DNA of 64,000 nucleotides from Carcharhinus amblyrhynchos (taxonomy: Eukaryota), in the NCBI GenBank assembly GCA_965287045.1, contig OZ336885.1, forward strand, positions 63,550,001-63,614,000, written 5' to 3'. Below are positions 1,638 to 60,810 of this stretch, piece by piece (within the stretch, counting starts at the first letter, position 1; each line of letters opens with the position of its first letter). The notes beneath the pieces are model-generated. The model ran no database searches. It saw only the letters and a program-made list of their open reading frames with translations, and had not been told where the DNA came from. Made by a program: the position numbers and the translations under genes.

Positions 1638-1673
1638 CTGAATCATTAGATATTTTCTTGCGAACTTCAGGTT
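1638..1673 (-). CDS. micro-exon 20 of the minus-strand coiled-coil gene, 36 nt, phase 1-1, (Q)PEVRKKISNDS
   Basis: ttttcttctttcacaccttag|aacctgaagttcgcaagaaaatatctaatgattcag|gtgagg; strong acceptor and donor; an internal AG gives an in-frame 27-nt form (1638-1664). Confidence 0.7.
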
Positions 1674-1825
1674 CTAAGGTGTGAAAGAAGAAAACTACTC
1701 GTGCATTACAGCACAGGAAATATTTTGCATAAAGACGATTTTCCCTTTCAACAAATGTTCATATTATTGACCAAAGTTGTACTGCTTTTAAAAACATAAG
1801 TATATCTCATGTCTCTTGAAATACA

Positions 1826-1826
<1 letters not shown>

Positions 1827-1875
<49 letters not shown>

Positions 1876-1877
1876 CA
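1827..1877. repeat. (CA)n microsatellite
   Basis: direct reading. Confidence 0.97.
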
Positions 1878-3784
1878 ATGTGTGGTAACGGTCATTATTG
1901 GCATTGAAAGTAGGAAGAGGAATGAACATTCTCCCCACCGAAAATATTTTCAAAAGCGAGTTAAACGTCATTGCTTATGCTTTTGTCGTCATAAGTTTAC
2001 AATTACAATACGATTGCATTGTCAACTGAATTGCAGAAAACCTTTGCAGTAAGTCTTTTCATTTCAAAATAACGGATGCAAAAAAAACTAAGGAGCGTTT
2101 ATGCTTAATGTATACATTAACATAGTTCAAATAAATAACTAAATAATGCATATCGAGCAATCCTGGATTCATTTTCTTTTAACCATCACGTTTATTTATT
2201 TTTAATGCCATTTTGTTGCATTATGTTAGAAACAATCCCTTCAGCAATGATTGTTGCGACGGTAGTGTTATATTGAGAGAGAGGGGGTTTGCTGAATCAC
2301 TCACAGCTGTATTTGCGTCTTAAAAGTAAAGTTGAAGATCTGTTAACCGATTCCAAGCCAGTTAAACTAAAAGTGGTCTAATAGATCTTAACTTCGCTAA
2401 AGAAGTTCTGGGGGCTGAATATGCTTCGCATATTAGCGAATACATTTTACAATGACAGAAACAATACGACACCTGTTGAATTGACAAAGAGGCTTAAGTA
2501 GGGTTCAACTGGGGGCAATAGGGAAGATGAAATTTAAACGGAATTAGTCAAGTATTTAGCTGTATCAGAGAAAAAGTCAGGTGTAGTGTAAATAGAAATA
2601 AAGCAATTGCAAATGAGGCGATCTGTGCTTGAACTTGATTTACTGGTATTAACTACTGCCACTCGCAGTACAGAATCGCATTCAGATGATACGGATTTTG
2701 TTGAATCTGAGAAGAAATTTAACAATGATACAGTACTAAAGGAATGGAACAGGATTGTGATCTATCCACCTCATAAAAAAAAAATGAAATTGCTACAGTG
2801 CCGCAATGACCGATGTACAATGAGGAGTCTCACAACCAGGTTAAACAATGGTTAAAGGCTCATCTCAGTCGCCAAGTACCAACAGAAAATAATGGAAGCA
2901 GAAGGTAAAACATGTAGTATAATCCAAAAAAATCAGTAATTGTTGAATTTTGGATGTGACAATGTTGTTTTAGAAGTGTTAGTTGCATTTATCTAACAGC
3001 ATTTCGTTAGAATATTGTTCTATTCAGTTTGTTAATAGTTAGTTAGGCTGTTCAGAGTTAGTCCAATAAATGGAGTGTGACATCTTGCTTTTGCAGACAA
3101 AGCCTCGGTGAGTTATTTTTTATTTAGCCAATAAAAGTTGCTAAAACGCAGAAAGTACGCCTGCTCACACATTCTTTAACATGTTATGAGGAAGCTACTC
3201 CTCTGTGAGTGGCTGAGGATTAGTTATCAGAGAGCAGATACGTCGCCCGCATCCCCCACAAGCCCTCACCACTGCACCCCCCCCCCCCCCCGATCATCGT
3301 GAACAAGAAGAATGTCGCAATTCCAGGGATTTTTGTCTTCATAATTAGACGTATTAAAAAATAGATTACATGCAAAATGAGAATGTTACTCCAAACAACA
3401 CATCTGGCAACGCAATGTGACTGGCATGTATAGCATATGGGTCTTTTTTTCAGTAAAGGAAAATATATCTTCCTCTGGACAGAAATGCAACAATTGTCGA
3501 TGGATGAAAATCCATGCTTGCACAAAACCATGAATTTCGAAGAGCTGCAACGTGTACTACGTTTGTGTCCTACTACGAGCAGCTTCAATGTAGTTTTCAG
3601 TGAAGAAGTATTTTTGAAACTGGGATGTATATGTACTTTGCCTGAAATCTCAGAACGTTATGACGACACCATTATCAGCTAAGTATTTTAAACCTTAAGC
3701 TGGGAGGAGAACATCAACCAATTCAAAAAAGGTATGGAGACGCATGATTATTGTCAACATCATTATTCCTTGCACAACATTATT

Positions 3785-4382
3785 CCCGCCTGTATACGGC
3801 ATTGGTGAGGCCGCAGCTGGAGTACAGTGCGCAGTTTTGGGCGCCGTACTTACGCAAGGATATTTTGGCCTTGGAGGGAGTGCAGAGGAGGTTTACTAGG
3901 CTGATGCCGGAGTTGAGGGGGTTGAGCTATGAGGAGAGGCTGAATAAACTAGGCTTGTAATGGTTAGAGTTTAGAAGAATGAGGGGAGATCTCATTGAGA
4001 CGTATAAGATGATGAATGGGATGGATAGGATAGAGGAGAGACTCTCCCCGCTTAGAAAGGACAGTAGGACTAGGGGGCACAGCCTCAAGATAAAGGGCGG
4101 GGGGCGGTTTAGAACGGAGTTGAGGAGGAACTTCTTCACTCAAAGGGTGGTGAATCTCTGGAATTCTCTGCCCGTTGAAGTGGTGGAGGCTACCTCGCTA
4201 AACATTTTTAAGACGCGGGTTGATGGGTTTTTGATAAGAGAGGGGATTAAGGGTTATGGGGAGAGGGCGCGAATGTGGATCTGAGCCACGACAGATCAGC
4301 CATGATCTTATTGAATGGCGGGGCAGGCTCGAAGGGCTAGATGGCCTACTCCAGCTCCTATTTCTTATGTTCTTATGTTCTT
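3785..4382 (+). mobile_element. young CR1 LINE, 5'-truncated 3' end (copy 1)
   Basis: ORF2 C-terminus LVRPQLEY...RRNFFTQRVVNLWNSLP with one premature stop; (TTCTTATG)n tail. Confidence 0.95.
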
Positions 4383-4627
4383 TTGTTCAACCCCAATGTT
4401 AGTCAATTTCAATCCACACAGAACTTTGGAGCATGTAAAGAACACATGAAACTAATGTATCCGGCCGGTGAGGACCCAAATGACCGGTTGTATTATTGAT
4501 AGTTTATTACCTTGAAGGGCAAAAAGACGGATTACGGTTTGCAATTAAACATTTCAATGCGGACTTCAGTCCTTTCAATTTGCTAATGAAATGTGCAATT
4601 TTCAATAGTGAACAGTTAATACATTAC

Positions 4628-4654
4628 GCGCAAGACACTGACTCAATCTGTCTC
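4628..4654 (-). CDS. micro-exon 19, 27 nt, phase 1-1, (R)DRLSQCLA
   Basis: ttttctgttcttttcttttacag|gagacagattgagtcagtgtcttgcgc|gtaatg; paralogous to 50160-50186 (DDKLNRCLK); donor weak. Confidence 0.75.
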
Positions 4655-5451
4655 CTGTAAAAGAAAAGAACAGAAAATGATTGAAGGAATGGAATAACAA
4701 ATTAAATAATTTAGATCCTGTACACAACAATGTACTCTATAATGTGTGAACTGATCGAAACTTGCAGACAATGTGACATAGAAAATGTGTGTTTCCAATT
4801 CGAGCATGGATTATCCATTATCAATATTTAACGTACTCACTGTCCATTCTAACTGCAACCTTTAATATGCATTCCATCATTGTGTACCATATATCCGCCA
4901 TTTAGCGTCAATCAATATGTCGTTTTTATTGCACGACTAGATGGCTTAATCAAAAATAATTGCCCAGGAATGTTATCCTGAATCTGCACAAATAATACTG
5001 TGAAGATAACTGTTCCAAAATAATACCAAAATGCACTCGCGTCTTTTTTTTTGTTTCCTCTCTGTTCTGCTCTTCTCAAGAGTTGGAAAAAATTTGTTTT
5101 TTTTTCAAGTCTATTTCGTTCGCCTTCCAGCCCCTAATTGGAACACTTATCCGTCGTAAAACAAAAATAAAGAAAATGACAGATAACGTTCAGTTCCCCC
5201 GACTTACAGAGTATCTTCAAACATTATCATGTCATTTCGTTTATACAAATATTATGCAATCAGTCGTTCACTTTATTTCGAGCAGACGAGCACAGCGTTT
5301 ACATATGTTCATTGTGACTGGAAATGCAGAAGATATTTACATTCTAACAATTAACAATGAAATTTAAGACAATCCCAAAAAATGCGTATATCGGAATTAC
5401 TGCATCAAGAGAAATAGTTGTCAATGTTTTTTTTAAAAGAACTATGCTCAC

Positions 5452-5478
5452 TATGTTCGGCAACCCTTGTCTTTATCT
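5452..5478 (-). CDS. micro-exon 18, 27 nt, phase 1-1, (E)IKTRVAEH
   Basis: tttatctttcag|agataaagacaagggttgccgaacata|gtgagc. Confidence 0.72.
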
Positions 5479-6773
5479 CTGAAAGATAAATATCAGCAAA
5501 ATTATGGGAAGAAAACAACTGTTGCAACAACAAAATGTCTGCTAGATTATCGTACATTGCCACGCTTGAGTCATACGCTTATTCAGGAAATGCAAATTAA
5601 ACGGACAAACTCAAATCAACTTAAGTAGTGGACGTGAGAACACACACACTGGCGGGAAGTGCACAGTTTCACACATACCCCGATATGAGCAATGGAGATA
5701 ATGGGAAAGTTGATGCTCGACGAAATTCCCGATTTAGAGCACCAGTCCAGTTCAGGGAATTCAAGAAATTACTTATTCGACTTAAAACTTGTTGTTTCCC
5801 AAGTGCAGAAAAATATTTTTCGGCAGCTTAGTGAGGCACTGATAAAATATTTCAGAAACTACACAACACTGTCAATGGCAAAACGACATTGTTTTGAATA
5901 CCAACATAAACATCATTGCTGACAGAAGCACAATGTCTAAACGTGAAAAAAAGGCAGATTAGATTACACTGCAACTGTTTTCCGCGACATCCACTCTTCA
6001 ACCCCTTGAACACAATATTCTAATGATTGTCCCAGGTTTCATCAGGTATGACGAACATTTTCGTAAATGTCACACTTCTTCACTCCTTCCCTGTAAAATA
6101 AGGAACAACTGTATAAAATATTGTCAATACGTTATGAGACAAGCGCCTTTTGAAAACAAAACAAAGATATAAGTAAGTGTCTCTGGGGAAAAAAGAAAAA
6201 AAGAATCAATGAATGGTAAATGGACAATGGACTTTTCATGCTCTGGTAGAACCCAATGTTTCAGTGTTAGGCAGTTCTGCAGTTAATAGGTCAGAATGGA
6301 AAGAGGAAAACCCAACTACATTTTTTTTTGTCAACACGTAAAGGTTTTCACAAGCCGCTAGCCTACTTATCTCCACAAATATTGGTGGTCTATTGAGTGT
6401 CAGGGCAGTAGAAACGCAAAATCATTTTAGGCAGTTAGGTTCGAGGTCATCTGTTCAATGTTGTCTAATATATTACGGTATGCATAAGTGTTTCTTTGCA
6501 GTTATTTATCAAGTTGTCCACGAGGAAACTTGAAACAAAATAATATTTATTTAATGGCCTTGTTAGGTTTGAACCAACATAACTGGCATAGTTTTTTTTT
6601 TACCAATAACAATACTTAGGCGTAGCAAAATAGAATTCCTAACAGCCAGCTAGTCCTGTTGATCCAAATTAAATTCCCCCACAAAGATATATGGACTGCC
6701 TTCGAGTAATGTAGAATGCCTTCCTGACACTGGTGTTTCAGCATTAACAAAAAACTTCTGGATTCTTTTTTTT

Positions 6774-6775
<2 letters not shown>

Positions 6776-6845
<70 letters not shown>
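6776..6845. repeat. (TG)n microsatellite
   Basis: direct reading, about 35 units. Confidence 0.97.
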
Positions 6846-6848
<3 letters not shown>

Positions 6849-9078
6849 TTTCCACACACACAAAAAAAACACTCACATACAGCAGAATCTCCATAAATGA
6901 GTGTTTTTTTTCTCGAAGTAAATGTGAGACTTCAACTTCAGAGAGGGGGAAAAAGAAGTTCATTCTCTGACTTAGAAAAACAACAACTGAGGATAAGTAT
7001 TCTGTGTATGCCCATCATCCCTGACGCATAAACACACGTTCCATTCATGACAATCCATCCCCACCCTGGAGCAATTATAGGGTAAAGGAATCGATCAACA
7101 TTGGATTCGATTGAACTCAGCATTCTTGCCATTAGAATCAATTATGTTGTTGTTGTAACAATGCAGGATGCCGGTATTCAGGCCAGCTCTGAGTGTCTAA
7201 ACCTGCCACAACAGATCCTGCAGAAAACATTTCTTACAAAAACACTATTGGCATACCTCTCACTTTAAAAAAAAACATCGTTCTGCATAAACGGCTTTTT
7301 TGTTTTAATTCTTCATGTTTGACACTGTCAGTAAGCTACAATGTATGCATTTCATAAAATCTAGATTCATTATTGACATTTTTGTGGGGAGCAATAAGAT
7401 TATGCGTAAACCATTTTGAACAGGGAGGCCAATTTTTGATGGGATAGGGATACCCCATTACACGGGGCCGACATTGAAGTTAAAATGAGGCAAGGATCAC
7501 ATCATTCATATCGCATCAGATTTAAAGAACAGTTCAGGTTTCTCCATGTCTCGCGCAAATTCTTAGGTAAACTAATACCTGCCAGCTGCACTCCAAACTA
7601 TTCATCACAAAAAAAAGCAACAATATTCTCCTGCACTCACTGTCACTGGAACTCAACGAACGTGTCATATGTATAGTATGCACATATTAAACATACAGGC
7701 CACACCGGTTAATAATTGCAAATTGCTGGTCTGCTGGAATAAAGGATTTAGAACCCACAATAAGCATGTCAGCGAAGCCTACAGATCTGTATGATAACGA
7801 TGATGAACATGATGAAGATGATAATGAAATTAATAATTACAATATTCGTAAACATATGCAATTCTGCACTCTTTCCATCCTTGCACTTCTGCAGACGATT
7901 TTCTTAGTAATACCAAATGTATTTTATTACATGCATAAACATGCATAATGCTATGTATATTTTTCAGTTGGGATTTATGTGTAAACAATTTTCACACGCG
8001 CCAGATATACGTATGTATTCCATAAAGAATAATTGATTTTTTTTGTGTTATAGAGTTGACCACTTATTGCAACATGTAACAATTATTAATTAATGGCGTC
8101 TATGCTAAAAATACATTAGCACCTGTTGCTGCACTTGTAATGCGCTGGGGTGACACTTAGGCTTCTCCCGTTTACAATCCCGAATTCGGCCATAATATGA
8201 GGCTAATACAAAATAATATTCCGAATTGATCGTGACAGCTTCAATTTTCATCATAATGTCGCAACAATTACAACAATATCTATTCTTCAGGCTTTCATCG
8301 TTTGCATTTGTAAACAATCCACGGAAGATTGAGAGCAAGTGAATTGTTTCCAGCTCAAGTGTGTACTGCTTCCGGATGCTCTAGGAAAATACAAGACATA
8401 TTGAAAAAAAAACATCTCTGACAGACAAAGTTGAAGAATTACAGAGGGATGCCAACAAACGTACAAAGAAGCCGTGAATAGAAGTACCGTAAGAATGATG
8501 TACGGCAAGAACGAACATTATATAAATCTGGGATGAACGGAGCAGTAAGCAGCATATGCCTGGAAACCAATGATTTGCAAAGGTTGGTGTGAATGTGTGG
8601 AGTAATGGGAATACAATTTAGCAACACTGAACCCTGCAGAAATCCAGGCCACCGTGTGCGTCAGCTATACAATTATCAGTAAAAGTTTAAAGAGTTATTG
8701 TCGCCTGTTGCAGTCAGAGGGCTTAGAGTGCAGTGATGGTAGATTGGTATGTCTGCACAACCTCCAAAATGAGTTGATTTCGACGGACAGGACATATTGC
8801 ATTTTGCGGTTGGGAGAGCCAAGAAGAAACGTGTGGAAGTTTCAAGGCTGCAAACGAAGATGAAAAATGTAAGTTATGTTAAATTTGTAAGAAGTTATCC
8901 CTGGAAATGTCTCCTCGGAACGGTGGAATCTAAATTAGAAATATCCAGGCATATGTTGAGAATGCAAAGAGATTTCTTTTTAATTTGTATTCTGAAATTG
9001 TGATAAAATATGTCATATATATTGAATATTCACGCATGATTTGCGATTAGGTGTAAACGTTTTGATGGCTATGCAAAC

Positions 9079-9114
9079 CTGCGTCTCGAAAATCTTGTTT
9101 TATTTTTGCTATAT
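9079..9114 (-). CDS. micro-exon 17, 36 nt, phase 1-1, (D)IAKIKQDFRDA
   Basis: catttctgtctcaatttcag|atatagcaaaaataaaacaagattttcgagacgcag|gtttgc; positional and length paralog of 51577-51612. Confidence 0.7.
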
Positions 9115-10301
9115 CTGAAATTGAGACAGAAATGCACAATTATTCCTTTGAAATATTGCCAGTGCAATAGTTGTCGGCATGTGCAATACTAATACATATA
9201 TCATCAGAGCGGACTCTGGCCGTTCGCTGATTATTTACTCTCGGGAAAATTAATCTGCCGTGTTCCAAAAGCTCAAGTAATACAATAAAAATGAATGGTG
9301 CTTAAGAGAACCAATTATAAATCTAATAAATGCGGTTTTTTTTTTGTAAATTCTTGAACACGTCTGTTCTGTCATTCATTTTCTCTCTCTCCGACTCTTT
9401 CTGAACCTTCCCTCATCCACTGCTCCTTTCCTCGACAGGTTATTAAATTGGAGACAATATAACAAATCTTTGAAGCGGCTCCTATTACACGGTTGTTTCA
9501 ATTCTCAGCCGGAATCCTGTCGAGGTCATTACGGTTGTAATTAAAATATGGCGTAGCACACTCTCCTTACAGTTTGCACGGCAGACACAACTTAGAATGC
9601 AGTTCAAGTGCGGCCTCGCCTGTTTCTTCAGGTTGGGCATTCACTTCAAAAATTATATAAGGCATTCGACTGAAAATTACAGTACATTAATTCTAATTGA
9701 TTAATTGCCATTGATTAGTGAATGTTGGGATGCATTTCTTTTAACGTCGCCAACTTTTTTTTAATAAATAGCGTTTTTACATTTCTTCAGCTCGTATTCT
9801 ATGATAGACAATAATTTCTTATTGATATGGACAGTTGAATAGATCAAGTGCTGGCGGTTCAACTCACAATTTTTGATTGTTGACTTTTGCAAACAAATGA
9901 ATTATTCACTTTGTCATTTTTTAGCAATCATGCAAGGCAGAAGTTTTTTTTTGCAGAGCAGCATTTGAGTTCGCAAAATAATTGAGGATTAATACAGACT
10001 AATATTCTTAACAAAGATAAATAGCATCAAAACAAGTATTTAACGATGATCGGAAATGCTTAGCGATTGATCAACCCGCAGACGGCATGATGCCATTACC
10101 TAGGAAATAAATATTGGAAACTATGGAAACACACAAATTGGCCTGGAACCTCTTCCACGAGCAGCAGCTTTCATTTCATAACAGGCACTGAACCGCTCAC
10201 CAGCCAGAAGTTTGCAGCTGTGCCTCTGCGTGGCTAAGACATTGCATGCATTCCAGATATTTGCGTTATATTTTGCACCAATAGCACTCAGAGTTCTGGA
10301 T

Positions 10302-13000
10302 GAACAAAGAAAAAAGAAAATTGCAGCATAGGGGCAGGCCTTTCGGCTCCACAAGGCTGTACGGACAACGCTAAACTGAAATCCCCTATCTTTCCCGGGA
10401 CCATACCCCTCTGTCCTCATCTCTAAATGTATTTGTCGAAAAGCCCCTGGCAACTAATTATTACATTTCCTTCCACCTCCTCCCCCAGCAGAGAGTTTCA
10501 GACAACCACCTCCCTCTGTGTAAAAAAGAAGCCTCACACATCTCCATTAAACTTATCCTTCACACCGTCAACTACCCCAGTAATTGACTCTTCCAACCGT
10601 GGAAAATCCTTCTGACTATCCGCATTGTCCACGTCCCTCATAATCTTCCAGACTTCTATCAGGTCGTCCTTCAACCTCTGTCGTTTCAGTGAGAACAAAC
10701 CAAGTTTCTCCAAAGTTGTCTCATGCTGCCTGGACGTCCATGCCAGGCAACATCCAGGTAAATGTTTGATGTACCCCCTACAAAGCCTTCACAGACTTCT
10801 GGTTGTGTGGCGACCAGAATTGAACAAGGTATTCCAAATGCAGTCTAACTGAAGTTCCCTAAATCTGTAAAATGACTTGCCAATGCTAAAACTCAATGCC
10901 CCGGCCAAGGAAGGCACGCACAACATATGCGTTCTTGAGAACTTCTCCACCTCTGTTGCCACTTTCAGTGACTTGTTTACCTCTACACCCAGATCCCTCT
11001 GCCAATCAGTACTCTTAATAGTTCTGCCGTTTTCTGTATATTTCCTATCATTATATGACTTTTCAAAATGCGTTAAGTCGCATTTTTCCGGATTAATCTC
11101 GATCGGCCATCTCTCCTCCTAAGCCTCCAACTGGTCTCTACCCTGCTGTTTCCCCTGACGTTCGTCATTACTGTCCACAAATCCCCTAACCTTTGCGTCA
11201 TCCACAAACTTACTAATCAAACCAGTTGCATTTAAAAAAAAACATTTCGATATATTTGAAGCAGCAAAGGACCCAGCACTGATCCACAAGGTACGCCACT
11301 TGTCAAAACCCTCTATTTTAAAACACACTCGTCCAGTGCTACTGTCTGTCTTCTACCACTGAGCGCGTTCTGTTTCCACCTTGCCAGCTCACCTCTGATT
11401 ACATGTACCTTCATCTTCTGCAACCATCGCCACGAGGAACCCTGTCAGAAGCATGACTGGAGTCCATGGAGACAACACCCACTGCTTTAACTTCATCAAT
11501 CATCTTTGTCACTTCCTCGAATAACGCAATATGTTCGCGCGACACGACCTTCCCTTCGCAGAATCATTTTGCCTCTCACCAATATGTCCACTTCGTTCCA
11601 AGTGCGAGTAAATCCTGTCTCGGAGAATGTTCTCCAATAATTTCTTTACCACTGACGCAAGCCTCACTGGCCCGTAATAACGTGGATGATCCTCACTATC
11701 TTTCTTAAACAAAGGAACAACATTGTGTATTCTTCAATCCTCTCAGACCCCCCTTTAGTCAGTGAGGATACCAATATTTTTCTTAAGGCCCCAGGATTTT
11801 TTTTTCTTGCCTTTCGCGTATTTTGTGACATACTGCATCAGGCCGTGGGGACTTGTCTACTTTAATGTTTCTCAAGAACCCGAATACCACCTCCTTTCTG
11901 ATCTCAACATGACCCAAACTGTTTACACACCCTTTCCAAGATTCGTCATCCACCAAATCCTTCTCTTTGGTGACTAGTGGCACAAAGCCCTCAAATACCT
12001 CGTCCGTTTTCTCTGGCTCCATGCATAATTTCCCTAGTCTGTCCTTGAGGGGGACAACCGTCTCCTTCTCTATCCTTTTGCTCTTTATACGTGTGTAAAA
12101 ATCCTTGGGATTTTCCCTAATCCTGCTGGCCAATGATATTTCATGATAACTTTTCGCCCTCCTCACTCTTTGTTTAAATTTCTTTCTATTTTTTTCTTGT
12201 ATTCCACACTTGTTTCATGCACTTCCAGCTTCCTAGTTTTAACAAATGTTTTCTCTCTCTCTTCTCTCTCTCTATCTCTCTCTCTCCCCTTGACTGGGCT
12301 CACAATATCACTCGTTATCCAAGGTTCCCAAAACTTGCCATACTTACCCTACATCCTTACCAGCATGTGTCTGAATCTCTGTCAACCTTAACTTGAATGC
12401 TTCCCACATGCCAGATGTTGATTTGCCTCGAACATCTGCCACCAATCTGCATTCTGCTGTTCCTGCCGTCTACTGCTGTAATTAGCCTTCTCCCAGATTA
12501 GCACCTCAATTTGATGAATACTCTTTTCCTTATCCATCAGTACCTTAACACTTGCTGAATTGTGGTCTGTGTTCCCAAGCTGCTCCCTTACTTAAACGTC
12601 GACAACCTGGCTCATTCCCCAATTCCAGGTACAGTGTGGTCCCTTCCCTGGTTGGAATATCTGCATACATTTTCAAATACATACAATTTCAAGAACCCCT
12701 CCGGGATGCTTTTTACAAACTCTGCCCCATCCACAACCCTAGCGCTAAGTGAGTCCCAGACAGTATGTAAATTGAAATCTCCCACTACCACAACACTGTT
12801 AACTTTACCAAATTTACCACTTTGCCAAAATCTGCACTACACATTTTTTTCTATCTCCTGCTGGCTGTCGGGTTGCCTCTCGTAAACGCCCAACATTGTG
12901 ACTATACCCCTCTTATTCCTGAGCTCCCCCATATTTCCTCACCTTACGAGCTCTCCATGCTATCTTCCCACAGTACTGTTGTTACATTCTCCTTAAGCAG
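10302..13000 (-). mobile_element. old degenerate CR1 LINE (endonuclease-RT remnant plus 3' tail)
   Basis: frameshifted fragments RIRENPKDFY, KVDKSPRPD, YGPVRLASVVKKLLE, ISKFVDDAKV; tail gaacaaaga...caggcctttcggc at 10302. Confidence 0.9.
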
Positions 13001-21331: not shown

Positions 21332-21333
<2 letters not shown>

Positions 21334-49443: not shown

Positions 49444-49470
49444 CATCGGTTTGGCATCTTTTGCTCAGTG
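49444..49470 (-). CDS. micro-exon 10, 27 nt, phase 1-1, (A)LSKRCQTD
   Basis: cgcatctttgcag|cactgagcaaaagatgccaaaccgatg|gtacgt. Confidence 0.75.
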
Positions 49471-50159
49471 CTGCAAAGATGCGATATACACAATCTATCA
49501 GTTGGAATGAGAATCAAATGGCAACCGTAAAATCATAGACATGTTTATAAAAAGACAGAAGTAGACAATTTTTCCAACTGCGTGATTTTCCAATTGCAAT
49601 GCTAATGCAGGCAATGACATACATCGCATTTCTTATACGCGCAACATGCATTATTCATATTCTTATGACTATCAAGGGCACTTTCCAGAAGGCTTGCTTA
49701 GATCTGACTTCAATGACGCCGGTGGCCATACATTCCATTTCCTAACACTATAATGTATTTAAATCGATTGTTTTCTGTTACAAATTGTATAGGCACTCCA
49801 TCAATTCGCCTGAGCATCAGCAGTTTTCTACCAACGGCACGTTTGGAAGAGTAGAGTCTGATTTTTCCTCCTTACAGTATTGGTCAGAGGCATTTTGTTG
49901 GAAAAATATATATTTTCATCACACGTTGCAAGTTGTTCTGATCATCAATTACTGTCAAAACAGGTAGATTTGTTTCATGTTCAAATTGTTGCCGAATTTG
50001 GCTAATCAGCCAATGATATTCAAAATGATATAACTTTCCACATAAATTATGTAAATTCATTTTGATCATCAATGTTAAAATGTCAAGGTGAGACTTCAAT
50101 CAAAACAGGTGACCAATTGCTGAACAGGAAACTGAACTTATTATTCGAAACAAAATCAC

Positions 50160-50186
50160 CTTTCAAACACCGATTCAACTTATCAT
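50160..50186 (-). CDS. micro-exon 9, 27 nt, phase 1-1, (D)DKLNRCLK
   Basis: ttatatttgcag|atgataagttgaatcggtgtttgaaag|gtgatt; paralog of 4628-4654. Confidence 0.8.
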
Positions 50187-51001
50187 CTGCAAATATAATT
50201 AATGCATATTTAGCAGCTTTGACAATAGTTGCATCTTTGGCATATGGTGAGCTAACAATAGACAGATAATCTTCAAATTGCAGAACAAGTAAGCAGCGAA
50301 ACGAAAGGGATTGTCTAGTGCACAGTTAATATTTCGCCTCCATTGTCAGTTATTTCCACAGCATTTTCTGAATAGCGCACTCATTATCAGACATTTTGCA
50401 ACCACCATATAAAGCGTTACACCTCACTGGCAGAAGGCGATGCCTAGCATCCCAGGAACCATTTGAACTTTTGTGCAAATCCAAATTTAGATGATGTTAT
50501 TCTATTTTCTTTTCCTCTGACATTTTATCAGCTTTAATGAACGACACACTTGTTGTAATATATCAGCAGAGGCAATGCGCAATGCTTACAATTTACAGAA
50601 GTCAAGTATGATATTAGTTTCAGGAGAATATACACATGAGCCAGAACGTAATGTAAAGATCTTCTGCACTCTTGTTAATATGTTTAAAACTGTCATCGAA
50701 TCCGGAATTACTGGAGAGAAATGACATTGGAAGCATTTATATAGAGACGCGCAACCAACAGAATTGCCAGAGCAATGTGCGGGTAATTTAATAGCCAAAT
50801 CTCGGAAAGAAGAATTCGAATAACAGAATCGTTTCCAGACCTCCAGAATAACCAACACCATGACACATGTCTCCAAGTAAGGTGTATTTTTTTTTAATAT
50901 AATTGCAGGTTACTGTGAGTAATTCAAATAAACTCGTATTCCCTAAAATATAGGTCTGTACATTGCAGTAACCACTTGGGCGCTGCTTTAAGACATTTAA
51001 C

Positions 51002-51028
51002 CTCGTTTCTTTATTTTTGTTGTTGTTT
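51002..51028 (-). CDS. weak candidate micro-exon 8, 27 nt (39 nt if the upstream AG is used, extending to 51040), (E)TTTKIKKR
   Basis: right length, phase and slot to pair with EIKTRVAEH, but poor acceptor (aaaatcag) and donor (gag|gttaaa). Confidence 0.3.
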
Positions 51029-51241
51029 CTGATTTTGATTCTGCATCATAAGCGGACACATCTGAACTAATTCTCTGAACTAAACATATTTTCTTCTGAA
51101 TGTTTTTGTTTATTTTGACGAACCTAACAACCGCATCTTGCGCAATTAAAATGTCCAACAAGCCTCGAAGTCTCCAATCAAACTAAATGTTACTTATGCA
51201 TGAAAGCACAGTCGTGAATCATTTCTGAAATTCGTGTTTTG

Positions 51242-51285
51242 TAGAATATAGAACACTACAGCACAAACAGGCCCTTCGGCCCATA
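51242..51285 (-). mobile_element. isolated CR1 3'-tail fragment
   Basis: tagaatatagaacactacagcacaaacaggcccttcggccca. Confidence 0.75.
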
Positions 51286-51576
51286 ACTGGCGCCGTTTCG
51301 TCATCCCGTCATTCAGAGTCGGTTGAATCATTACTCCGTGTTATCCAGGTAATTTCTGTTCGTATTTACTTTCAAAAAAAAACAAAACAAAAAGACTGTG
51401 GCTCCAGTTCAGCAGCACTTTTATTTTGAATTTCATTCTGAGGAAGTGTAATGCTGGCCGCTGTCATACGCTCTGTAGGCCAACAACATACTTTTCTGGT
51501 AATTTGCCGAAACATAAATGTTATATGTTATGGTCTCGCTTCGAAATACATGGCACAGAATGCCCTTATTGTTCAC

Positions 51577-51612
51577 CTGTTTCCTTGAGAATATTTTTCG
51601 TGTCGTTTAGCT
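51577..51612 (-). CDS. micro-exon 7, 36 nt, phase 1-1, (E)LNDTKNILKET
   Basis: cttttatttctgtattcag|agctaaacgacacgaaaaatattctcaaggaaacag|gtgaac. Confidence 0.8.
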
Positions 51613-53683
51613 CTGAATACAGAAATAAAAGTTGGCTTACATGAACTTGCGAAGGTTAGAAACGAAAGTTACATCTTGAAAGATCAGCCGAAGTAAGGGC
51701 TAACATATTGTTCCTCTAGTTGCACGTCTAATTATTATTACATTGTGCCCCTTTAAATAAAGTTTCCTCCAAGCGCAGAATGTGAAAAAAAAAGGAATTC
51801 ACCACCTGATTCCAAATCGTATCCTTCAAAGAAATCGCAAGGGCATGGTGAGTTTCTTTGCGAGGATCCGTTTTTTTTGCAGTACCATTAGAGACTGGGA
51901 CCAACATGGCGAATCAAATGATATATGTAAATGTTAACACTGTCGAAGCATATTACTTGAAAAAAAATGTTAAACTCTGTTTGAAATGCGAGGCAATACA
52001 TCGACTTTGCATGTTTTGGGAAGTTGGCAATGCATCACCACACCCCGTCCATTACGTCTGCGTCGAAACGCAGAACGGGCATTGCACACAGCCCTGCCTT
52101 CCGGCACATCCCCTTAACCCCAAACATTTACCATAATAAATCCAAGACTACACAACGTTGCAGATGAAAGCATTTGTTCCTCGGATAAGTGCAGGTAAAC
52201 AGCAGAACTTTTGACTGTGCAGTGAAATTGGATCGGCTGGACAACGCGCAGAGACGGTACCGATGTGCAAACAAAACGCTGAGTTGAAGAAAATCAGAAT
52301 CTCAACAGGGTCTATCACATTCTGTGGTACTAATGATAACTCTCAAGCTCAGTGCTGCTAATGAAACAGCAAAAGAGGCAATGAGAACCCCCTCTACAAT
52401 GTTCATTCAAAATATATGAATTCAATCTGTTGCAATGATGCAGATGGATGACTCATGATGCATAAAATATTTTGGTCATACAATCGATATCACTAAGTAA
52501 ATAACATCTGTTATTACTCATCGTGCTGCTTGCAAGACCTGCAAATTGGCTACCTTGTTTCCCATATTCCATGAGACGTACTGCACTTCACTGACTGCAT
52601 ATCGCAATGGCGAAATTGGACGTACAGAAAATCGATCCCAGTATTTACTACATCGGCGTTCCAATTGATATGGGTTTTTTTTTCTCAGTGAGTCCCCACT
52701 TCTGCGAATATGCCAGAAGCACCTGGCTGAATTGATATCCATATTTTAGTTTCACTGAACGTTTTTTCTTTGCATCTTCATTTTCACAGGAAACAAAATA
52801 ATACGTTTGAAGCATAAAGCAAAAGAGTAACTAGTCTTCATATAGGTCAAATACGTATTTTCCTGTTGGACTTAAACCTGAAATAATTTATGTATTACCT
52901 AAATACTTTAACTATACTTAAAAGAAGAACTAAATTATGCAAATAGGACGACAATCCCTGACCTGCACATAGTATCAAAGTTATACCTCAGCCAAATTGT
53001 CCAAGTGCCTACCCTTGTTTCTTGTCCTGAGCTAGTCTCTTTATTCATTTTGTAAGCGCATACCTTAGGCCTCCTTGATGCTCCATTTCAGCAATTTTTT
53101 TTTCATGTTCTGAAGGGTTTCATTCCTCGTCAATTCAATTTCAGTAAAATGCATTTTTACATTTTTTTATATCGAAACGTCAGTCTCACTTATCAGGATT
53201 CAAAGGAGAAATTGTACCTTTTTCACGTGTCTTAAGCTCTTTGTCTGTGAGGGGGGAAATGTTGCACCAAAGTAGGACAATGTAAAATGCCAATTAAATT
53301 TAGATCAAATGATTTCTCTTATTGTCTACACTAAGTGCAACACTGCGAACCAGAGTTAGAAATATGCGGATTAAATTGTTATTGAAAGTAATGCTTGTCA
53401 CATTATGGGGAGCAATGTATCAGTGTCATTGCACTTCGACAGTCAGACGCAATATTCAGTTCTGATCATCCCAGATTTGTTGGAACACAGGTCAGAGCCC
53501 CTGTAGGGTTCATTTCAGTAAACGAGCCTTCATCGATAAATGGAAATACTGCGTAAGAAAACGTCCTCGAACACATAATGTTTTGTGCGCCCATCTAAGA
53601 TGTTTATTTCTTAAAGCACAGCCGAACTGTTGGTCCATTTGCAGATTTCCAAGGCACTTTTGTTATGATCCAGTTTTTTTTTT

Positions 53684-53970
53684 AGTTTATTTGTTAATGA
53701 AACGAGTGAGCTTACATCAACACTGCAACGAATTTATTGCGAAATAATCTCTGGTCATCACACACCGGTGCCTGCATGTGTATACGGTAGGGAAATTAAT
53801 TCATTAAATACGTCACACAACACGTATTTCGGATCGTGGGAGGGGACCAGAGAAGCCAGAGGAAACCTACCCACAGCCAGGGAGAACGTTCAGACTGTGG
53901 ACAGACTGTCATCCAAGATTGAAATTGAACCTGTTCCAAGGCGCTCTAAGGCAAAAACGTTCTCCATGCT
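53684..53970 (-). mobile_element. V-SINE (same tail family as 694-993), degenerate
   Basis: reverse-complement tail agtttattt...gcttacatcaacactgcaa and V domain ccagaggaaacc...gggagaacg. Confidence 0.78.
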
Positions 53971-54019
53971 CTAGGCTAGATCTACGATCTTGCAACCGCG
54001 GAATGTATGCATTACTCAC

Positions 54020-54046
54020 CATAACTGTCAAAGAATTTTCCAGGAC
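54020..54046 (-). CDS. micro-exon 6, 27 nt, phase 1-1, (C)PGKFFDSY
   Basis: ttttattcaccaattag|gtcctggaaaattctttgacagttatg|gtgagt; needed to avoid a TAG at the exon 5/7 junction. Confidence 0.7.
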
Positions 54047-54533
54047 CTAATTGGTGAATAAAATTCTCGATGTAGTGAATGCGGGCTACGGTTCAATATA
54101 TTTGGAATTATGAACATGTAATTCCGAGAAATAATTATGTTGATATTCATTGACAGCAATGTTTTATGCAAGTATTCTGGACGGAATGTAACTGTGTACG
54201 CAAACTAAAATACTGTGCCACCTGTTCAAATCTGTGCGTGATGGAATTAAATTCCTTGAAAGAATTTGAACGAGATCTGTCGATAAAATATATCTACTAT
54301 CCAATTGTGTATTTTTTCGGATGGAATTAGATATTTAATCTTCAAATATAACTTCCAGAAATGCGTGAAATTCTTTACATTTCTTATATTCATGACATGC
54401 TTTATTCAACAGACAATACGACCAGGAGCCATGAATACTGCGCAAGCAGTATCTTCACAACTTGCAACGGGATACCATGAAATGCAACAAAGTTGCAATA
54501 TGTTAAACAAATCTCAGTGGAAACGATTCTTAC

Positions 54534-54569
54534 ATTTGTTTTCTAAGGCTTTCTTTAATTTGCGGTTTT
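54534..54569 (-). CDS. micro-exon 5, 36 nt, phase 1-1, (E)NRKLKKALENK
   Basis: attttctttttcatattccag|aaaaccgcaaattaaagaaagccttagaaaacaaat|gtaaga; paralog of 28121-28156. Confidence 0.9.
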
Positions 54570-55628
54570 CTGGAATATGAAAAAGAAAATAAATCTTCAA
54601 ATGTGAAATCCGATATCATATCAGTGAAATTAGTATCATATCAGCGATTCTGGTGTCAAATTCTGAAACGGATTTTAGGACCAGAATAGCAATATCCAGT
54701 TTTCAATCTATCTGTTTAGACAAATCATATTATTTCTACCTGCACAAATCGTTCTCTTGCACGCTAAGGGTAGAATACCAACTCACTTTCACGCGCAAGT
54801 ACAGGTGAGACATAAATGACAACACAGCCATAAAATAAACATTTTTATCACTTGCATATTTCAACCCCAGTCCACAGCATTCGCAAATCAATGAAATGGG
54901 GAAGAAGTTTAATTTATGTTGTCATTAATGCAACAGAAACCTCAATTCAGTGACCTTAAAATTGTTCACAGATAAAGACAACTAACGATAGTGATGATGC
55001 CTCGCAAAACATCATTATACGTAAATGCAAGTTCAGCAATGCATTCCCTCCAGGAAACGAATAAATTATTTATCGATGCCTAAAGCGACACATAGCCATT
55101 CTTCTGACTTGTATTGACATTATTATTTTGTCCTTATGTTCAAATACGCATCCTTCAAATTATATACCCATTTGTTATGTCAGTATCGAAAAAATCGTGG
55201 TTGTGCATTAGGCGACAAATTCAAACATCGATGGGCAACGAAAATGAATTATACCATCCCTAAAGTAACGGCTATTGATCTGGATTCGACGGGACACAGC
55301 ACTTCTCTGTAACATTACGCCAACAGATAATAAAATGCCCACTCTAAGCAAATTAACTTGTGAGTAATATGGCATTTTTTTTTATTGTCCAGTGTTTCAG
55401 CAAGTACATACAACTCATCCCTTCTCATTGGGCACAGATTGATAATGTTTTCGCCGCTTCTTCCGTTGAAATCCTCATTTGCTGATGCATTAGTTTCATT
55501 CGCAAAATAATTTACACTGCTTTATATATTGAGCAGCGTTGGTAAGAAACCATTTGCACACACAAAATGATATCAGTGTAACTTTGGAATTGGAGCAGGG
55601 ATTTGGATGTATAAGATATTTCAGTTAC

Positions 55629-55655
55629 CTTTCTCTTTTGGTAGTAATAATGAAG
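55629..55655 (-). CDS. micro-exon 4, 27 nt, phase 1-1, (T)SLLLPKEK
   Basis: ggcatttctttcaag|cttcattattactaccaaaagagaaag|gtaact; paralog of 42523-42549. Confidence 0.85.
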
Positions 55656-55710
55656 CTTGAAAGAAATGCCACAAGCAAAGTGATGGTCATCATAATTATC
55701 ATCAAAATTG

Positions 55711-55901
55711 NNNNNNNNNNNNNNNNNNNNNNNNNNNNNNNNNNNNNNNNNNNNNNNNNNNNNNNNNNNNNNNNNNNNNNNNNNNNNNNNNNNNNNNNNN
55801 NNNNNNNNNNNNNNNNNNNNNNNNNNNNNNNNNNNNNNNNNNNNNNNNNNNNNNNNNNNNNNNNNNNNNNNNNNNNNNNNNNNNNNNNNNNNNNNNNNNN
55901 N
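55711..55901. other. assembly gap (191 N)
   Basis: run of n. Confidence 1.
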
Positions 55902-58900
55902 GTTTCAGAACAAAATTAGTATTTGATTATGCATTAGTACCAAGTCAATCTGACCCATGGACTTTGATAATTCAAAGGCTTAGAGAATTATTCACATGTT
56001 ATTCACTAAAAAGCGGCAATAATAGGACTGATTCAGCCGACATGGTATATTTGTCGCTACAGAAAACGGGAGTGCTAAACTCATGTTTTGTTAAATCGAC
56101 CAAAAACCTATAATGTGCTCACCATCAAGTCTTCATCCCAATACCATTAATCATTGCAAACAATTTCGTGGAAAAAAATAGTAAAGACTTGTTGATTAAT
56201 ACTAATGATGAGGATAACAATAATAATATGATTTTTGTTATCTACATCATTATTGTCTTCATGTAACACCTTTTCTTTTTACATTGTAACATTTTATGCA
56301 TGCAACTACACTCATCTGTCGTTGATGAAAGGCTTCTTTTGTTTAAAAAAATATATAAAAAGATGGGCAGTTGTCAGCCATTCTGTTGGGTGACATGTTC
56401 CACTATTCAGCTAGTTTGCGGACGATCTCCATCAAAGGCATGTTTATTGCTGCTCATATAACTAATGATACGTCTTTATTATCATTTACAAAAAAATGGA
56501 GACGCATCTCTCTTTTGAATGCTTCCAGGATTGAACACCTACAGCCCTCCCAATCGAAGAAAAGAAAACACAAACTGCTTCTCATTGAAAAAAAAATGAC
56601 ATCTCTGTATCTGATAATGTGGATCATGCGTCTAATATTTACAAACAGGGCCTGCGTTATTCGACAGACTCATCACCAGAGCCAAGTGAAAATATGGTTT
56701 GGTACTAAATTATGTTCCCTCATTTATCAAAATGTGCCAGAATAAATGACCTGCCTCTGAACCCTGCGCCAAAGAAGGCATGACAGGCATATTCAGTCAG
56801 AATTTATTGCCCTTCCATTTATGCAAAATGTTTTCCTACTGAAGATATCATGCAAATTTACTGATATGGTTTTATCTGTTATGTCCCCAAGTCTCTGCAC
56901 AGTTGCTGAACCTACTTAATTTAGTCTGAATTTCACCTGAAATGAAGTCAACCATGGTATTTTCCTTCTCCCTTGCCGGTTTTTGACACTGAATCATGAA
57001 CACAATTGCCTCGATATCATCAGAAAGCAACACTTGCCAATTTCTTGTGCGCGAATGCATTTTCTGCATTAGAAACCCCCACCCACCACCCCCGCCCTCC
57101 CCTCCCCACCTGCACCCCCAATTAATTCCACATTATTTTCCAACACTCGGATACAAATCCAATCAACATGTATCATTGAAAAGTATCATCCCTAAATTGC
57201 AGAATTGTATTGCTTTCAAGCCTGCACCAATAGTGGCGTTAACCATGACCTAATTGCTTAAAGCATTATACTTGCTCTGCTGGTCAACCACAGTGAATAG
57301 TCAAACAATCAAATAAGCGCGTTTTAGAGAGTTTGAAAAATTGGGGAAAAAATCTGCATTTTGTTTTCGGCTGGGATTTCAGAGATATCAGAGAAATTAT
57401 TCTTGGGAAGTGTTTTTCGGAGTATGTACAGTCAAATTTTGAGGGATTTTGTTTTTCGTTTTCGTGGGACGGGAGTGCCAGTAGATGCCATACTACATAA
57501 TTCCCATTTCCTCTCCAACCAAAAGCTTTGTCAGTCCATTTCCGAGGGAACATAAAGGACAGACACATTGTTGTGAACCTCGTGTCAACGTAGTTCAGGC
57601 TAAGTAAATGTGTCATTTCTAAGTCGGCCAATGTTATGAGTGAACGTTCTATATTATTAGAAACGTTAACAATCGTCCCATGGTCACGATAAGATGTTTA
57701 ATTTCGGATTTAAATTATTGTGCTTTTTCACGATTGAGTGGAAATGATGTGAATTTTTGGATTCGAACTGCATTGAAAACACCAGTATTATATGGCGTCA
57801 CCTAATCGGGGTGTCTAGGACCATCGGAGGATAAGACAACACTCGTGTATTGCAGTTTTCATGAAAAGCTAATTGTCTGAAAAAGTGATCAGTCTCCATT
57901 TGTTTTTTTATATAACCCGAACAAGCTGAGGAGATTCAGCTGTCGAACAAGTACAAGGCTGATATGGACCCTTTTATGAACTGGAAAAATTCTGATTATG
58001 GACAGAAGGCCGGAAGATCTTTGTAACTTCAGTCATGTCCTAATAACTTAGTCACGCACGATGGATGGGCAAAATTGTCAAGTGTTGTCACTACATCCTA
58101 TGCAATTAGCATCTTATAGTTAAGATCCTTTTAAGAACCTTTCCATTGTTTTCCTTCAAAGCATGGCACCAACAAATTAGTTGCCGGCAAAATGTTTAGA
58201 GATAATGTATTTTGCCCTAACTCAACATTATTGATTCAAATTGTGAATATCTGTGGCCAAGAACTGATCTTTCCACTTTGCACTTCATCAGGGCCTGCAT
58301 GGATGAGAATAAATTATATATTCTGTAACTATTTACTCTAATAATTTCTATTTTGACAGTCACTTCAAACATAATTACACTGTCGAGTTGGAATCGTCGG
58401 TTAAGATTGTCTGAAAGTGAAAATGCACTGTATGGACTGGTTTCTGCTCATTTACGGGAAAATCAAAGCAGACTGAAGTTTTCAACGCAATCGCTTAACA
58501 TTTATAAACTTACGTTGTTACTGCCAAACTCTCCCATTATTTTGTGGGTCAATGTATCACACGCTTAGACAAAGTTGCAGGAAGTTCCATATCGTAGATG
58601 CATGTATAGCAGTTTTTTTTTTCTTCGCGAGTTTCTCGGTGTTGTTCAGGAACATTTCACCAACAGATGATTTTTTTTTAAGTTTGGGTATCTTATGCTC
58701 TGTGTGGAAGCACAAGCTCGTACCACTTGCGGAACAAAACCAGCGTTCTGACAACAACTTCGAGAACAATAATTTAAACTATGCAAAGTAGGTCCTGAAA
58801 TGCGGAGCCCATCATTGCAGCTCATTTGAGGTTATATGGATTCCGATTGGTTACCCTCTGGAGCAACACCGATTCCATATTCTATCACGTTCCCACTACA

Positions 58901-59162
58901 CCACTGATTAATCCACCATTTTTTTTCCACATGCAGTGTCCTTAGTTCGCAAGATTCAGAAAAAGACCTCATAGCATCTGATGGGATTATACTTTTGACA
59001 GTCGTCCAGTTACTGCACACATGTTTATTCTGCAACGTTGCATTATTCACTAAGTCAGAATCCGTGTGCCTGACCAAGGGTACCGCGACATCTTGGCAAG
59101 TGATTTCATGTATTGAATCTATTAAAATATATTTTTGTGCATTCGATGTTTTCAACATGTTA

Positions 59163-59458
59163 CTTTTAATATTGGCGTCACAAGCAGGCTTTCATTTGCG
59201 CTCAATTTTAGTTACTGTGAAAAGCCTCTCGTTTCTGCACTCCAGAGCTTTCGTAAACTCTCTGGTAGAATTAGCATATCCAATGCATCCAACCAGAAAG
59301 TCTTTTGGACGGTGGAAGTGAATCTATCGAATCAGAGGAAACATACACACGCATGGGAAGAACGTGCAGACTCGGCACAGACTGAGACCTGCAAAGAATC
59401 TGACTTGTGTCACAGGTGTTCTTTGGCAGCAACGCAAACCACACTGTGCCGTGCTGCT
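59163..59458 (-). mobile_element. V-SINE (same tail family as 694-993), degenerate
   Basis: gtcacaagcaggct...gttactgtgaaaag tail; gaagaacgtgcagactc V domain; head ccacactgtgccgtgc. Confidence 0.78.
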
Positions 59459-60012
59459 CGAGCTACCATGTTGTCCTACGTTTAAACCATCTAATTTAGC
59501 ACAGACGGAACAACCATCATCTACCTTTTTTTTGGTTATCATTTACGTTAATTTTGTCTTTAGGCTCAGTGCACCATTTTTGTAGTCACACGCTAAAGCA
59601 TTTACTGACGCTGATTGTTTTCTAAAATGTTTTATCTCACGTATTATCATCGGAAAGGAACTGATTTATTACTCACATTTATACATGATAAATTAAGTTC
59701 ATACTCCTCGAAGGTTAAAAACGACGGCTGGAATAGTATGCAAATTAAGTTCGAAAGGTATAAAATGAGCAAAGAAACGATCACGTACAGCCCAATCAGT
59801 GAGAGTTAGTGTCTATTTCAACATGGTGAATATGTTTCGGAACATATCCTATCTAGAATTAACCCTGCAATCATTCATGTGTTAGTTGAACAATTTTTTT
59901 TTGGGGGGGGGGGGGCTTAAGTTCTCCTGGTGTATTTTGATTACAAATACATATTTTATTACACTGTAGAGTACCACTCTCCGCTGCGAGGGAATTACAA
60001 TATGCTACTTAC

Positions 60013-60039
60013 TCAATTTCTCAACAAGATTCTCGAGTT
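60013..60039 (-). CDS. micro-exon 3, 27 nt, phase 1-1, (E)LENLVEKL
   Basis: aattgtttccttgcag|aactcgagaatcttgttgagaaattga|gtaagt. Confidence 0.88.
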   Translation of the reverse strand, partial: NSRILLRN

Positions 60040-60224
60040 CTGCAAGGAAACAATTATGAGTTGGAACTTTTCAGCATTGTAACACTAATAATCATGTGGC
60101 TGTGCCCAACGAAATACCTTGCTACATCCATTCATTTTGCATAAGTCCATTGACTTGTTGTGTATGACATTTCATTTGATATTTGCAGAGTAAGGAGCAT
60201 GCATTATCAGTAGTTTATAAATCC

Positions 60225-60277
60225 AGCACACAGAGACGCCCAATTTGAGTCAGCAGCGCTAACTGCTGTGCCACCGT
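60225..60277 (-). mobile_element. SINE tRNA-head fragment
   Basis: gagtcagcagcgctaactgctgtgccaccgt is the reverse complement of the SINE head. Confidence 0.6.
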
Positions 60278-60632
60278 TTTGACTTTTATATTCCTCAAAT
60301 AAACCTTCATCCTTGGAACCCCGAAATAGTTGACCTCCGCTTTGCTGCGACCAATAACATTATCGGGGTCTCTCGAATGGGGACCGAAGCAGTTGTCTGT
60401 AATTCTCCAGTCTGCAATGCAATGCAAATTCTACATTTCTTTCCATAAGCACATGACTGGCTACCTGCTGCCCTGTATTTTAACCCACATTTCGAATTTT
60501 CACATTGAAATGGAGCGGTGCAGCTGAGTTAATACTTCTAATATTGTGCCGAGAACACCATGTCTGAGCCTTTCAATAAAACGAGAAATGCAGGTGGAAC
60601 ATCCTGTTATTGTTTTAAGTATGTTTTCTCAC

Positions 60633-60659
60633 CTTTGTATTTATTATCGAAGTCATCGC
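60633..60659 (-). CDS. micro-exon 2, 27 nt, phase 1-1, (R)DDFDNKYK
   Basis: attattgcccatag|gcgatgacttcgataataaatacaaag|gtgaga. Confidence 0.8.
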
Positions 60660-60783
60660 CTATGGGCAATAATTAATGAAATGTTATCGATCCACTCGAA
60701 ACGGAGAACAAATCTAAAAATGTTGATGTTGATGTTTCAAGGCAATATGAGAAGTCAAACGTAAAGGAGAGGCATATACTTAC

Positions 60784-60810
60784 GTTTTTCACGACGTGTT
60801 AGTTCATTCT
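60784..60810 (-). CDS. micro-exon 1 (first seen in the window), 27 nt, phase 1-1, (x)NELTRREK
   Basis: gatttattgtag|agaatgaactaacacgtcgtgaaaaac|gtaagt. Confidence 0.78.

Follow-up and report, generated by a model that had tools for sequence, protein, structure and literature searches.

The tails of chicken BG proteins are encoded, according to the part of PMC4046983 that is available to us, by 13–36 exons of 21 or 24 nucleotides (nt) that follow an immunoglobulin variable-type (IgV) domain and a transmembrane segment; the same excerpt has the tail of the BG zipper protein regulating the interaction of actin and myosin. Here we analyse a 64,000-nt stretch of the Carcharhinus amblyrhynchos genome (the window; C16:63,550,001-63,614,000, in which C16 is the contig that carries it, OZ336885.1), which lies within a gene (gene B) assembled from exons of 27 or 36 nt. 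These micro-exons are very probably spliced into a rod that ends in a B30.2 domain. Positions without a contig name count from window base 1 (C16:63,550,001), and numbers with a plus or minus sign extend this count beyond either window end. We read 1.38 Mb around the window without gaps, together with further 10-kb samples, which also cover a tandem paralogue upstream on the same strand (gene A).

Micro-exons in the window

The first-pass annotation of this DNA had proposed, for the minus strand, at least 18 AG..GT-bounded segments (13 with 27 nt and five with 36 nt), all in phase 1-1 and free of stops when joined. All 18 are present (1638-60810). Spliced together in sequence, they make 176 codons without a stop, whereas the alternative frames contain 14 and 22. 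A generic splice-site scan of the minus strand for lengths of 15–60 nt found nine segments of 27 nt and eight of 36 nt; the other 44 lengths average 1.07 (maximum 4). The plus strand has none and one, respectively, in line with the earlier claim that it shows no enrichment, and segments of 21 nt are not in excess in the window. The 17 minus-strand segments, which include at least one false positive (62745-62780, part of a CR1-type long interspersed nuclear element (LINE)), compare with 1.7±1.4 (maximum 7) in 60 block-wise Markov shuffles. A held-out profile, trained solely on 82 exons of gene A and used at a score of at least 5, accepts 14 of 288 minus-strand candidates and 1 of 194 plus-strand candidates; the 14 are 13 of the original 18 and a new exon at 53218-53244. 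The expectations that the exons avoid transposons and that about 1% of the span is coding also held: none of the 18 overlaps a local repeat (self-BLAST of the 1.38 Mb), and 558 nt are coding within 59 kb. The micro-exon feature is real.

The features of the window follow, with held-out profile scores and the positions of gene A partners.

1..64000, minus strand: whole window, inside gene B, which reaches from a 5′-most detected exon ~29 kb upstream to a B30.2/SPRY exon 401 kb downstream
60784..60810, minus strand: 27-nt phase 1-1 exon, the first in the first-pass annotation; score 6.4; partner +558867; next intron 124 versus 128 nt in the two genes
60633..60659, minus strand: 27-nt exon; positional partner +558712; score just 2.9
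60013..60039, minus strand: 27-nt exon; score 12.9; partner +553683
55629..55655, minus strand: 27-nt exon; score 1.1; partner +543106 (5/8 amino acids)
54534..54569, minus strand: 36-nt exon, internal repeat of 28121-28156; score 30.9; partner +530023
54020..54046, minus strand: 27-nt exon with Pro/Gly, a likely helix break; low profile score; partner +529446, intron 487 versus 550 nt
53218..53244, minus strand: 27-nt exon overlooked at first, internal repeat of 60784-60810; score 11.5; no gene A partner found
51577..51612, minus strand: 36-nt exon; score 27.5; partner +525628
50160..50186, minus strand: 27-nt exon; score 14.7; partner +521286
49444..49470, minus strand: 27-nt exon; score 9.1; partner +520513
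48778..48804, minus strand: 27-nt exon; score 15.7; partner +518913 (6/8 amino acids)
46397..46423, minus strand: 27-nt exon; score 2.0; positional partner +512502
45996..46022, minus strand: 27-nt exon; score 17.6; partner +512146
42523..42549, minus strand: 27-nt exon; score 22.9; partner +510365 (7/8 amino acids)
28121..28156, minus strand: 36-nt exon; score 28.0; partner +501378
9079..9114, minus strand: 36-nt exon; score 13.9; partner +481787
5452..5478, minus strand: 27-nt exon, less certain; good splice score; held-out score 4.1; no convincing partner
4628..4654, minus strand: 27-nt exon resembling 50160-50186; score 7.4; no convincing gene A partner
1638..1673, minus strand: 36-nt exon; score 10.7; no convincing gene A partner
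25581..25619, minus strand: unsupported weak candidate; open and AG..GT-bounded, 39 nt instead of 27 or 36; no gene A partner
51002..51028, minus strand: unsupported weak candidate of 27 nt; below every threshold used; no gene A partner

The last two had been put forward as weaker candidates and were rejected, as were 62745-62780 (36 nt, beyond the range first annotated; the LINE fragment above) and 16078-16104, which creates a stop when placed directly after 28121. CR1-type LINE fragments at 19.9-21.4, 38.9-39.6, 44.2-44.7 and 62.6-62.9 kb hold the only long open reading frames (ORFs) of the window apart from chance frames. A run of N at 55711-55901 (191 nt), 55 nt upstream of exon 55629-55655, touches no listed exon and could cover one.

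A gene of micro-exons that probably ends in a B30.2 exon

The first-pass annotation had envisaged about 20 exons over 59 kb, which greatly understates the gene. The array of gene B stretches between about +92.9 and −395.5 kb, and the gene spans ~493 kb. We detected 107 exons (63 of 27 nt and 44 of 36 nt) with a profile trained partly on the counted exons themselves; this number includes four added by hand below threshold (88372, 55629, 54020 and 46397) and excludes three dropped beforehand (16078, −273822 and −395194). Joined, the 107 encode 1,094 amino acids without a stop. Because the profiles modelled lengths of 27 and 36 nt only, exons of other sizes would be missed. Across the span of gene B, the held-out profile accepts 99 of the 2,097 candidates on the minus strand and 2 of the 1,828 on the plus strand; in the 92-kb gap between gene B and gene A, 0 of 336 pass. 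Nineteen of the micro-exons, close to the 5′ end of gene B, lie in the window. The detected limits of the gene are as follows.

C16:63,642,887-63,642,913, minus strand: 5′-most detected exon of gene B; exon score 4.4; ~29 kb upstream of the window
C16:63,148,851-63,149,363, minus strand: terminal B30.2/SPRY exon of gene B; intact, with a phase-1 acceptor and a stop; 401 kb downstream of the window

A B30.2 domain downstream had been suggested at the outset, and three comparisons agree on this exon. It matches Pfam SPRY (E 9e-11; 42.3 bits, cut-off 26.3), with no score for Pfam PRY; its best matches among Protein Data Bank (PDB) sequences are BTN3A1 (E 9e-17); and its structure model (predicted local distance difference test, pLDDT, 91.9) is a B30.2 sandwich like those of TRIM7, TRIM15 and BTN3A1 (Foldseek E 6e-13). 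The exon belongs to the B30.2/SPRY superfamily, with its PRY–SPRY β-sandwich. The window exons would presumably be spliced onto it.

Conservation in a tandem paralogue

Gene A ends in a B30.2 exon of its own.

C16:63,735,740-63,736,258 (+185,740), minus strand: terminal B30.2/SPRY exon of gene A; 122 kb past the window end

Up to +862 kb we detected 117 exons of gene A; farther out, samples contain more exons, presumably of the same gene, and these are still present at C16:64.74 Mb, short of its 5′ end. An exon-by-exon alignment of the two genes places 56 pairs in order, with a score of 771 against 354±27 (maximum 433) in 30 order shuffles. Fifteen of the 18 exons first annotated have a collinear partner in gene A (132 codons, 51% amino acid identity). 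Over these 15 pairs, the summed BLOSUM score is 332 against 18±31 (maximum 136) in 5,000 random re-pairings, and the exons share 64% of nucleotides, compared with 29–32% (background) in the flanks. Identity at the three codon positions is 0.61/0.77/0.56, and the proportion of synonymous differences (pS) is 0.56 against 0.30 for non-synonymous ones (pN), the latter biased low because pairs were chosen partly by similarity; 19 downstream pairs behave alike (pS 0.52, pN 0.28).

We also compared 341 bp, containing two exons, with two related organisms. There was no stop, indel or splice-dinucleotide change. The expected excess of exon over intron conservation was not seen in this small, low-power sample (3 of 54 exon nt versus 12 of ~285 intron nt differ in the more distant organism). 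At window position 60793, in the first exon, one of the two has Cys in place of Arg; gene A also has Cys there. Inside gene A, on the minus strand at C16:64,025,788-64,026,297, is an intronless ORF with IQ-like motifs, which resembles a processed copy of SPATA17 type.

Heptad design and exon duplication

The two exon lengths have distinct patterns. In 91 exons of 36 nt, a hydrophobic residue or Cys occupies positions 1, 4 and 8 in 79–88% of cases and position 11 in 47%, and 114 exons of 27 nt have Leu at position 3 in 61 and Lys at position 6 in 59. A 36+27 exon pair encodes 21 residues, or three heptads. Hydrophobicity peaks at a period of 3.4–3.6 residues (z 5.0 for the window part and 11.8 downstream), in agreement with the long helical rod proposed earlier; Cys makes up ~2.5% of the rod. 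The window part is irregular (14 exons of 27 nt, five of 36 nt, some Pro, Gly and Cys), so the coiled coil is probably interrupted rather than continuous in this less regular N-terminal portion.

As all exons are in phase 1-1 and most end in G (183 of 205, with junction residues mostly Glu or Asp), their duplication or skipping keeps the frame. The window contains two copies of a three-exon module, and a third copy lies immediately upstream. In the gene A array, one 36+27 pair is near-identical in five of nine 10-kb samples from C16:64.63-64.74 Mb, and one member of it is found in two more. Judged by their sequences, these near-unchanged copies are the product of recent tandem amplification of the three-heptad unit. 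The rod is likely to have grown by duplication of such frame-neutral 63-nt exon pairs and, if so, provides a clean case of protein growth by this route.

A family in cartilaginous fishes

Gene B has relatives nearby. C16 carries six related B30.2 exons from 60.45 to 66.44 Mb, each with micro-exons upstream on the matching strand (in samples). The six genes occupy ~6 Mb; individually, and sized partly from samples, they range from at least 0.25 Mb to more than 1 Mb. A seventh B30.2 exon, at C9:106,383,694-106,384,167 on another contig, is sister to catshark XP_038672308.1 and has a 36-nt exon ~28 kb upstream. All 82 major histocompatibility complex (MHC) class I matches in the genome are on C9 and none is on C16; thus the C16 cluster is not linked to MHC class I, and the seventh member shares its contig. 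PBX genes, on C33, C9, C25 and C41, give no sign, as a single marker, that C16 is an MHC paralogon, and a search for MHC class II matched nothing anywhere in the genome and is uninformative on linkage.

The closest named single-domain matches among 1.84 billion proteins come from catshark, skate, numbfish, basking, whale and epaulette sharks and chimaera, under names such as TRIM39-like, TRIM69-like, A33-like, butyrophilin-like and nuclear-pore anchor-like. One goby protein examined alongside groups with ordinary TRIM/BTN domains. In nine database relatives that we scanned, SPRY was the only domain, and the stalks of five fit the 9/12-residue blocks of this locus (z 3.6–15.3; reversed sequences fail), unlike four TRIM coiled coils (z −0.1 to 2.1). 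The following RefSeq models are assigned to the family by the B30.2 tree and the block profile; they are mostly short and include no close orthologue of gene B.

XP_042192744.1: Callorhinchus, 1,697 amino acids
XP_038668997.1: Scyliorhinus
XP_038672308.1: Scyliorhinus
XP_055510696.1: Leucoraja
XP_069775385.1: Narcine

These models are called ‘nuclear-pore anchor-like’, ‘TRIM39-like’, ‘TRIM69-like’ and ‘zinc-binding protein A33-like’. Catshark XP_038668997.1, found among 153 candidates examined, joins three micro-exon peptides of a further gene (gene C) and the B30.2 domain in one model. RefSeq isoforms, which rest on transcripts, differ among the relatives by cassettes of nine residues (in one case six). 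XP_038672306.1 starts with 9-residue repeats in tandem, as might be expected if 27-nt exons had been duplicated. Word-index searches added little: a search for longer proteins with the gene B B30.2 domain alone yielded none from 537 candidates, a nine-row alignment gave 27 matches with one family member, and the chimaera stalk matched just itself and its older model.

In an unrooted tree made by a quick method, 16 B30.2 rows of the family separate from 15 TRIM/BTN rows with a Shimodaira–Hasegawa-like approximate likelihood ratio test (SH-aLRT) support of 100; this tree leaves out five outgroup rows of an earlier one, and with a misaligned row (P0171) included support is 97/56 for the other 19 rows. 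The first-pass annotation could assign no family. Tree and block profile now place gene B in a family with a coiled coil and a divergent B30.2 domain. Its suggestion of a chondrichthyan-specific, unannotated protein stands in part: all named family relatives are from cartilaginous fishes, and they are annotated, though fragmented and misnamed. We found no account of this family in the literature searched (listings and the starts of abstracts; subscription papers and supplements lay outside this search). This is apparently an undescribed multigene family of cartilaginous fishes. Its genes, six on C16 and at least one on the MHC contig, consist nearly wholly of exons of 9 and 12 codons that gene finders fragment or misname.

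Proposed product and alternatives

The sequences themselves show a series of ordered exons with an intact B30.2 exon downstream on their strand, the conservation of these exons one by one in gene A, and database proteins built to the same plan. On this basis we propose that gene B is a separate gene for a cytoplasmic dimeric tether, a reading to which we give a probability of about 0.6. At least 107 exons of 27 or 36 nt would be spliced into a coiled-coil rod of at least 1,100 residues with B30.2 at its end. Two chains would pair in parallel, giving a rod of ~160 nm if continuous. The rod would sit in the cytoplasm as a long two-chain tether or scaffold, and its pair of B30.2 heads may bind a protein target, presumably with no ubiquitin-ligase activity. 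The 5′-most exon contains an ATG in strong Kozak context, and this candidate start reads M-G-x-x-x-S (exon score just 4.4), the N-myristoylation pattern, which is frequent by chance; were the start real, the rod would be lipid-anchored at one end.

Several observations weigh against this proposal. Searches for a promoter, a CpG island outside repeats and a clear first exon of gene B found none; the window part of the rod is irregular; the low pN partly reflects how pairs were chosen; and exons were not more conserved than introns in the 341-bp comparison. The detected exons of gene A contain two stops when joined, so the exon lists are incomplete or contain false positives. The closest fetched database protein to the gene B stalk has E 2e-5, with no close orthologue, and two relatives start with hydrophobic stretches that may be signal sequences.

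As no promoter or sure first exon was found for gene B, the two genes could instead share a single transcription unit in which gene B is an alternative 3′ half: the gene A stalk would join either the B30.2 exon of gene A or, skipping that exon, the stalk of gene B with the second B30.2 exon. Gene B matches just the 3′ ~390 kb of gene A, its first detected exon carries a phase-1 acceptor, the 92-kb gap contains neither partners of the more 5′ exons of gene A nor a domain exon, and strand and phase are constant throughout both genes. Against this stand the strong-Kozak ATG, the short RefSeq relatives that begin inside such arrays, and the six B30.2 exons on both strands of C16, each with its own array. 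We regard a shared unit as unlikely. In its fullest form, which is distinctly doubtful, A and B would make one ~1.6-Mb transcription unit of well over 250 micro-exons that can end in either of two B30.2 exons, with splicing setting the length of the rod and the head at its tip; if true, rods of up to several hundred nm would constitute an undescribed chondrichthyan system of length-variable tethers.

It is improbable that gene B encodes instead a butyrophilin/BG-type membrane receptor or secreted protein with signal, immunoglobulin (Ig) or transmembrane exons yet to be located. Heptads followed by B30.2 are the plan of a butyrophilin tail (in the text available from PMC8813856), the best PDB sequence matches are BTN3A1, two relatives have hydrophobic N termini and the rod contains ~2.5% Cys. 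The upstream signal, IgV or transmembrane exons suggested at first were not found, however. Among 117 minus-strand ORFs of at least 70 amino acids between +64,001 and +185,700 (repeat-covered ORFs left out), none reaches a Pfam cut-off, and no Ig, RING or B-box exon was found between gene B and the last exon of gene A. None of 35 genome matches to the butyrophilin-type IgC domain (PF22705) is on C16, a V-domain motif occurs in just 2 short ORFs among 9,649, and 126 kb hold two ATG–hydrophobic–donor sites, neither of them supported, in a search that short transmembrane exons could escape. No relative in the family has an Ig domain, and in the tree the B30.2 domains of the family are separate from those of TRIM and BTN.

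If gene B were a partial copy of gene A that is decaying or silent, this would account for the failure to find a first exon and for the lack of excess exon conservation in the small cross-species sample. Yet the exon flanks of the two genes no longer align, whereas 56 exon pairs remain collinear with their splice sites and reading frames preserved; pS is also higher than pN, and gene B has an intact B30.2 exon. This is not expected of a long-dead copy, and we consider decay or silence very improbable. That the segments are chance AG..GT pairs picked out by the first-pass annotation has a negligible probability: false positives such as the LINE look-alike at 62745-62780 do happen, but strand and length specificity and the collinear paralogue contradict the idea, which the held-out profile and the shuffles had already refuted.

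Comparison with known systems

Gene B resembles chicken BG and its soluble zipper protein in having a long heptad tail in many tiny exons, and BG is alternatively spliced with a variable number of exons (PMC4046983, excerpt). Chicken BG carries an IgV domain, spans the membrane and lacks B30.2 (PMC4046983). Gene B has at least 107 exons of 27 or 36 nt, rather than 21 or 24 nt, over 493 kb, a terminal B30.2 domain, and no Ig or transmembrane exon that we could find.

Butyrophilins (BTN and BTNL) share with gene B a heptad region followed by a C-terminal B30.2 domain (PMC8813856 and PMC12841164, as far as their available text goes), an order that in gene B is genomic, with splicing presumed. Unlike them, gene B has no extracellular IgV and IgC2 domains or transmembrane segment that we found, and its heptad region is ~1,100 residues long, compared with a few repeats. 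Its family groups apart by B30.2 domain, and the C16 cluster is off the MHC class I contig.

TRIM proteins with B30.2, as defined in the accessible part of PMC8813856, likewise combine a coiled coil with PRY–SPRY, and the fold of the gene B domain matches the B30.2 of TRIM7, TRIM15 and TRIM21. The N-terminal RING and B-box of a TRIM protein were not found upstream of gene B or in the nine relatives, TRIM coiled coils misfit the 9/12 block profile, and the B30.2 domains of the family do not appear to be nested among those of TRIM and BTN. With no Ig, RING or B-box exon found upstream, gene B appears to be neither a butyrophilin or BG gene nor a TRIM gene. The guinea-pig enterophilins, soluble mammalian proteins with a long leucine zipper and B30.2, appear alike in architecture. 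Very short exons between long introns also characterize the micro-exon genes (MEGs) of Schistosoma (bioRxiv 10.1101/2023.06.21.545858, in the portion available). These encode secreted parasite proteins in exons of 3–81 nt (same source and portion), and no homology is implied.

By analogy, gene B may be viewed as a greatly stretched butyrophilin/BG-type tail with a B30.2 head, a new version of the heptad-exon design of BG and BTN. The family, in which no Ig or RING was found, unites a BG-like heptad rod of many exons with a butyrophilin- or TRIM-like B30.2 head and bears on the origin of the BG, butyrophilin and TRIM immune gene families.

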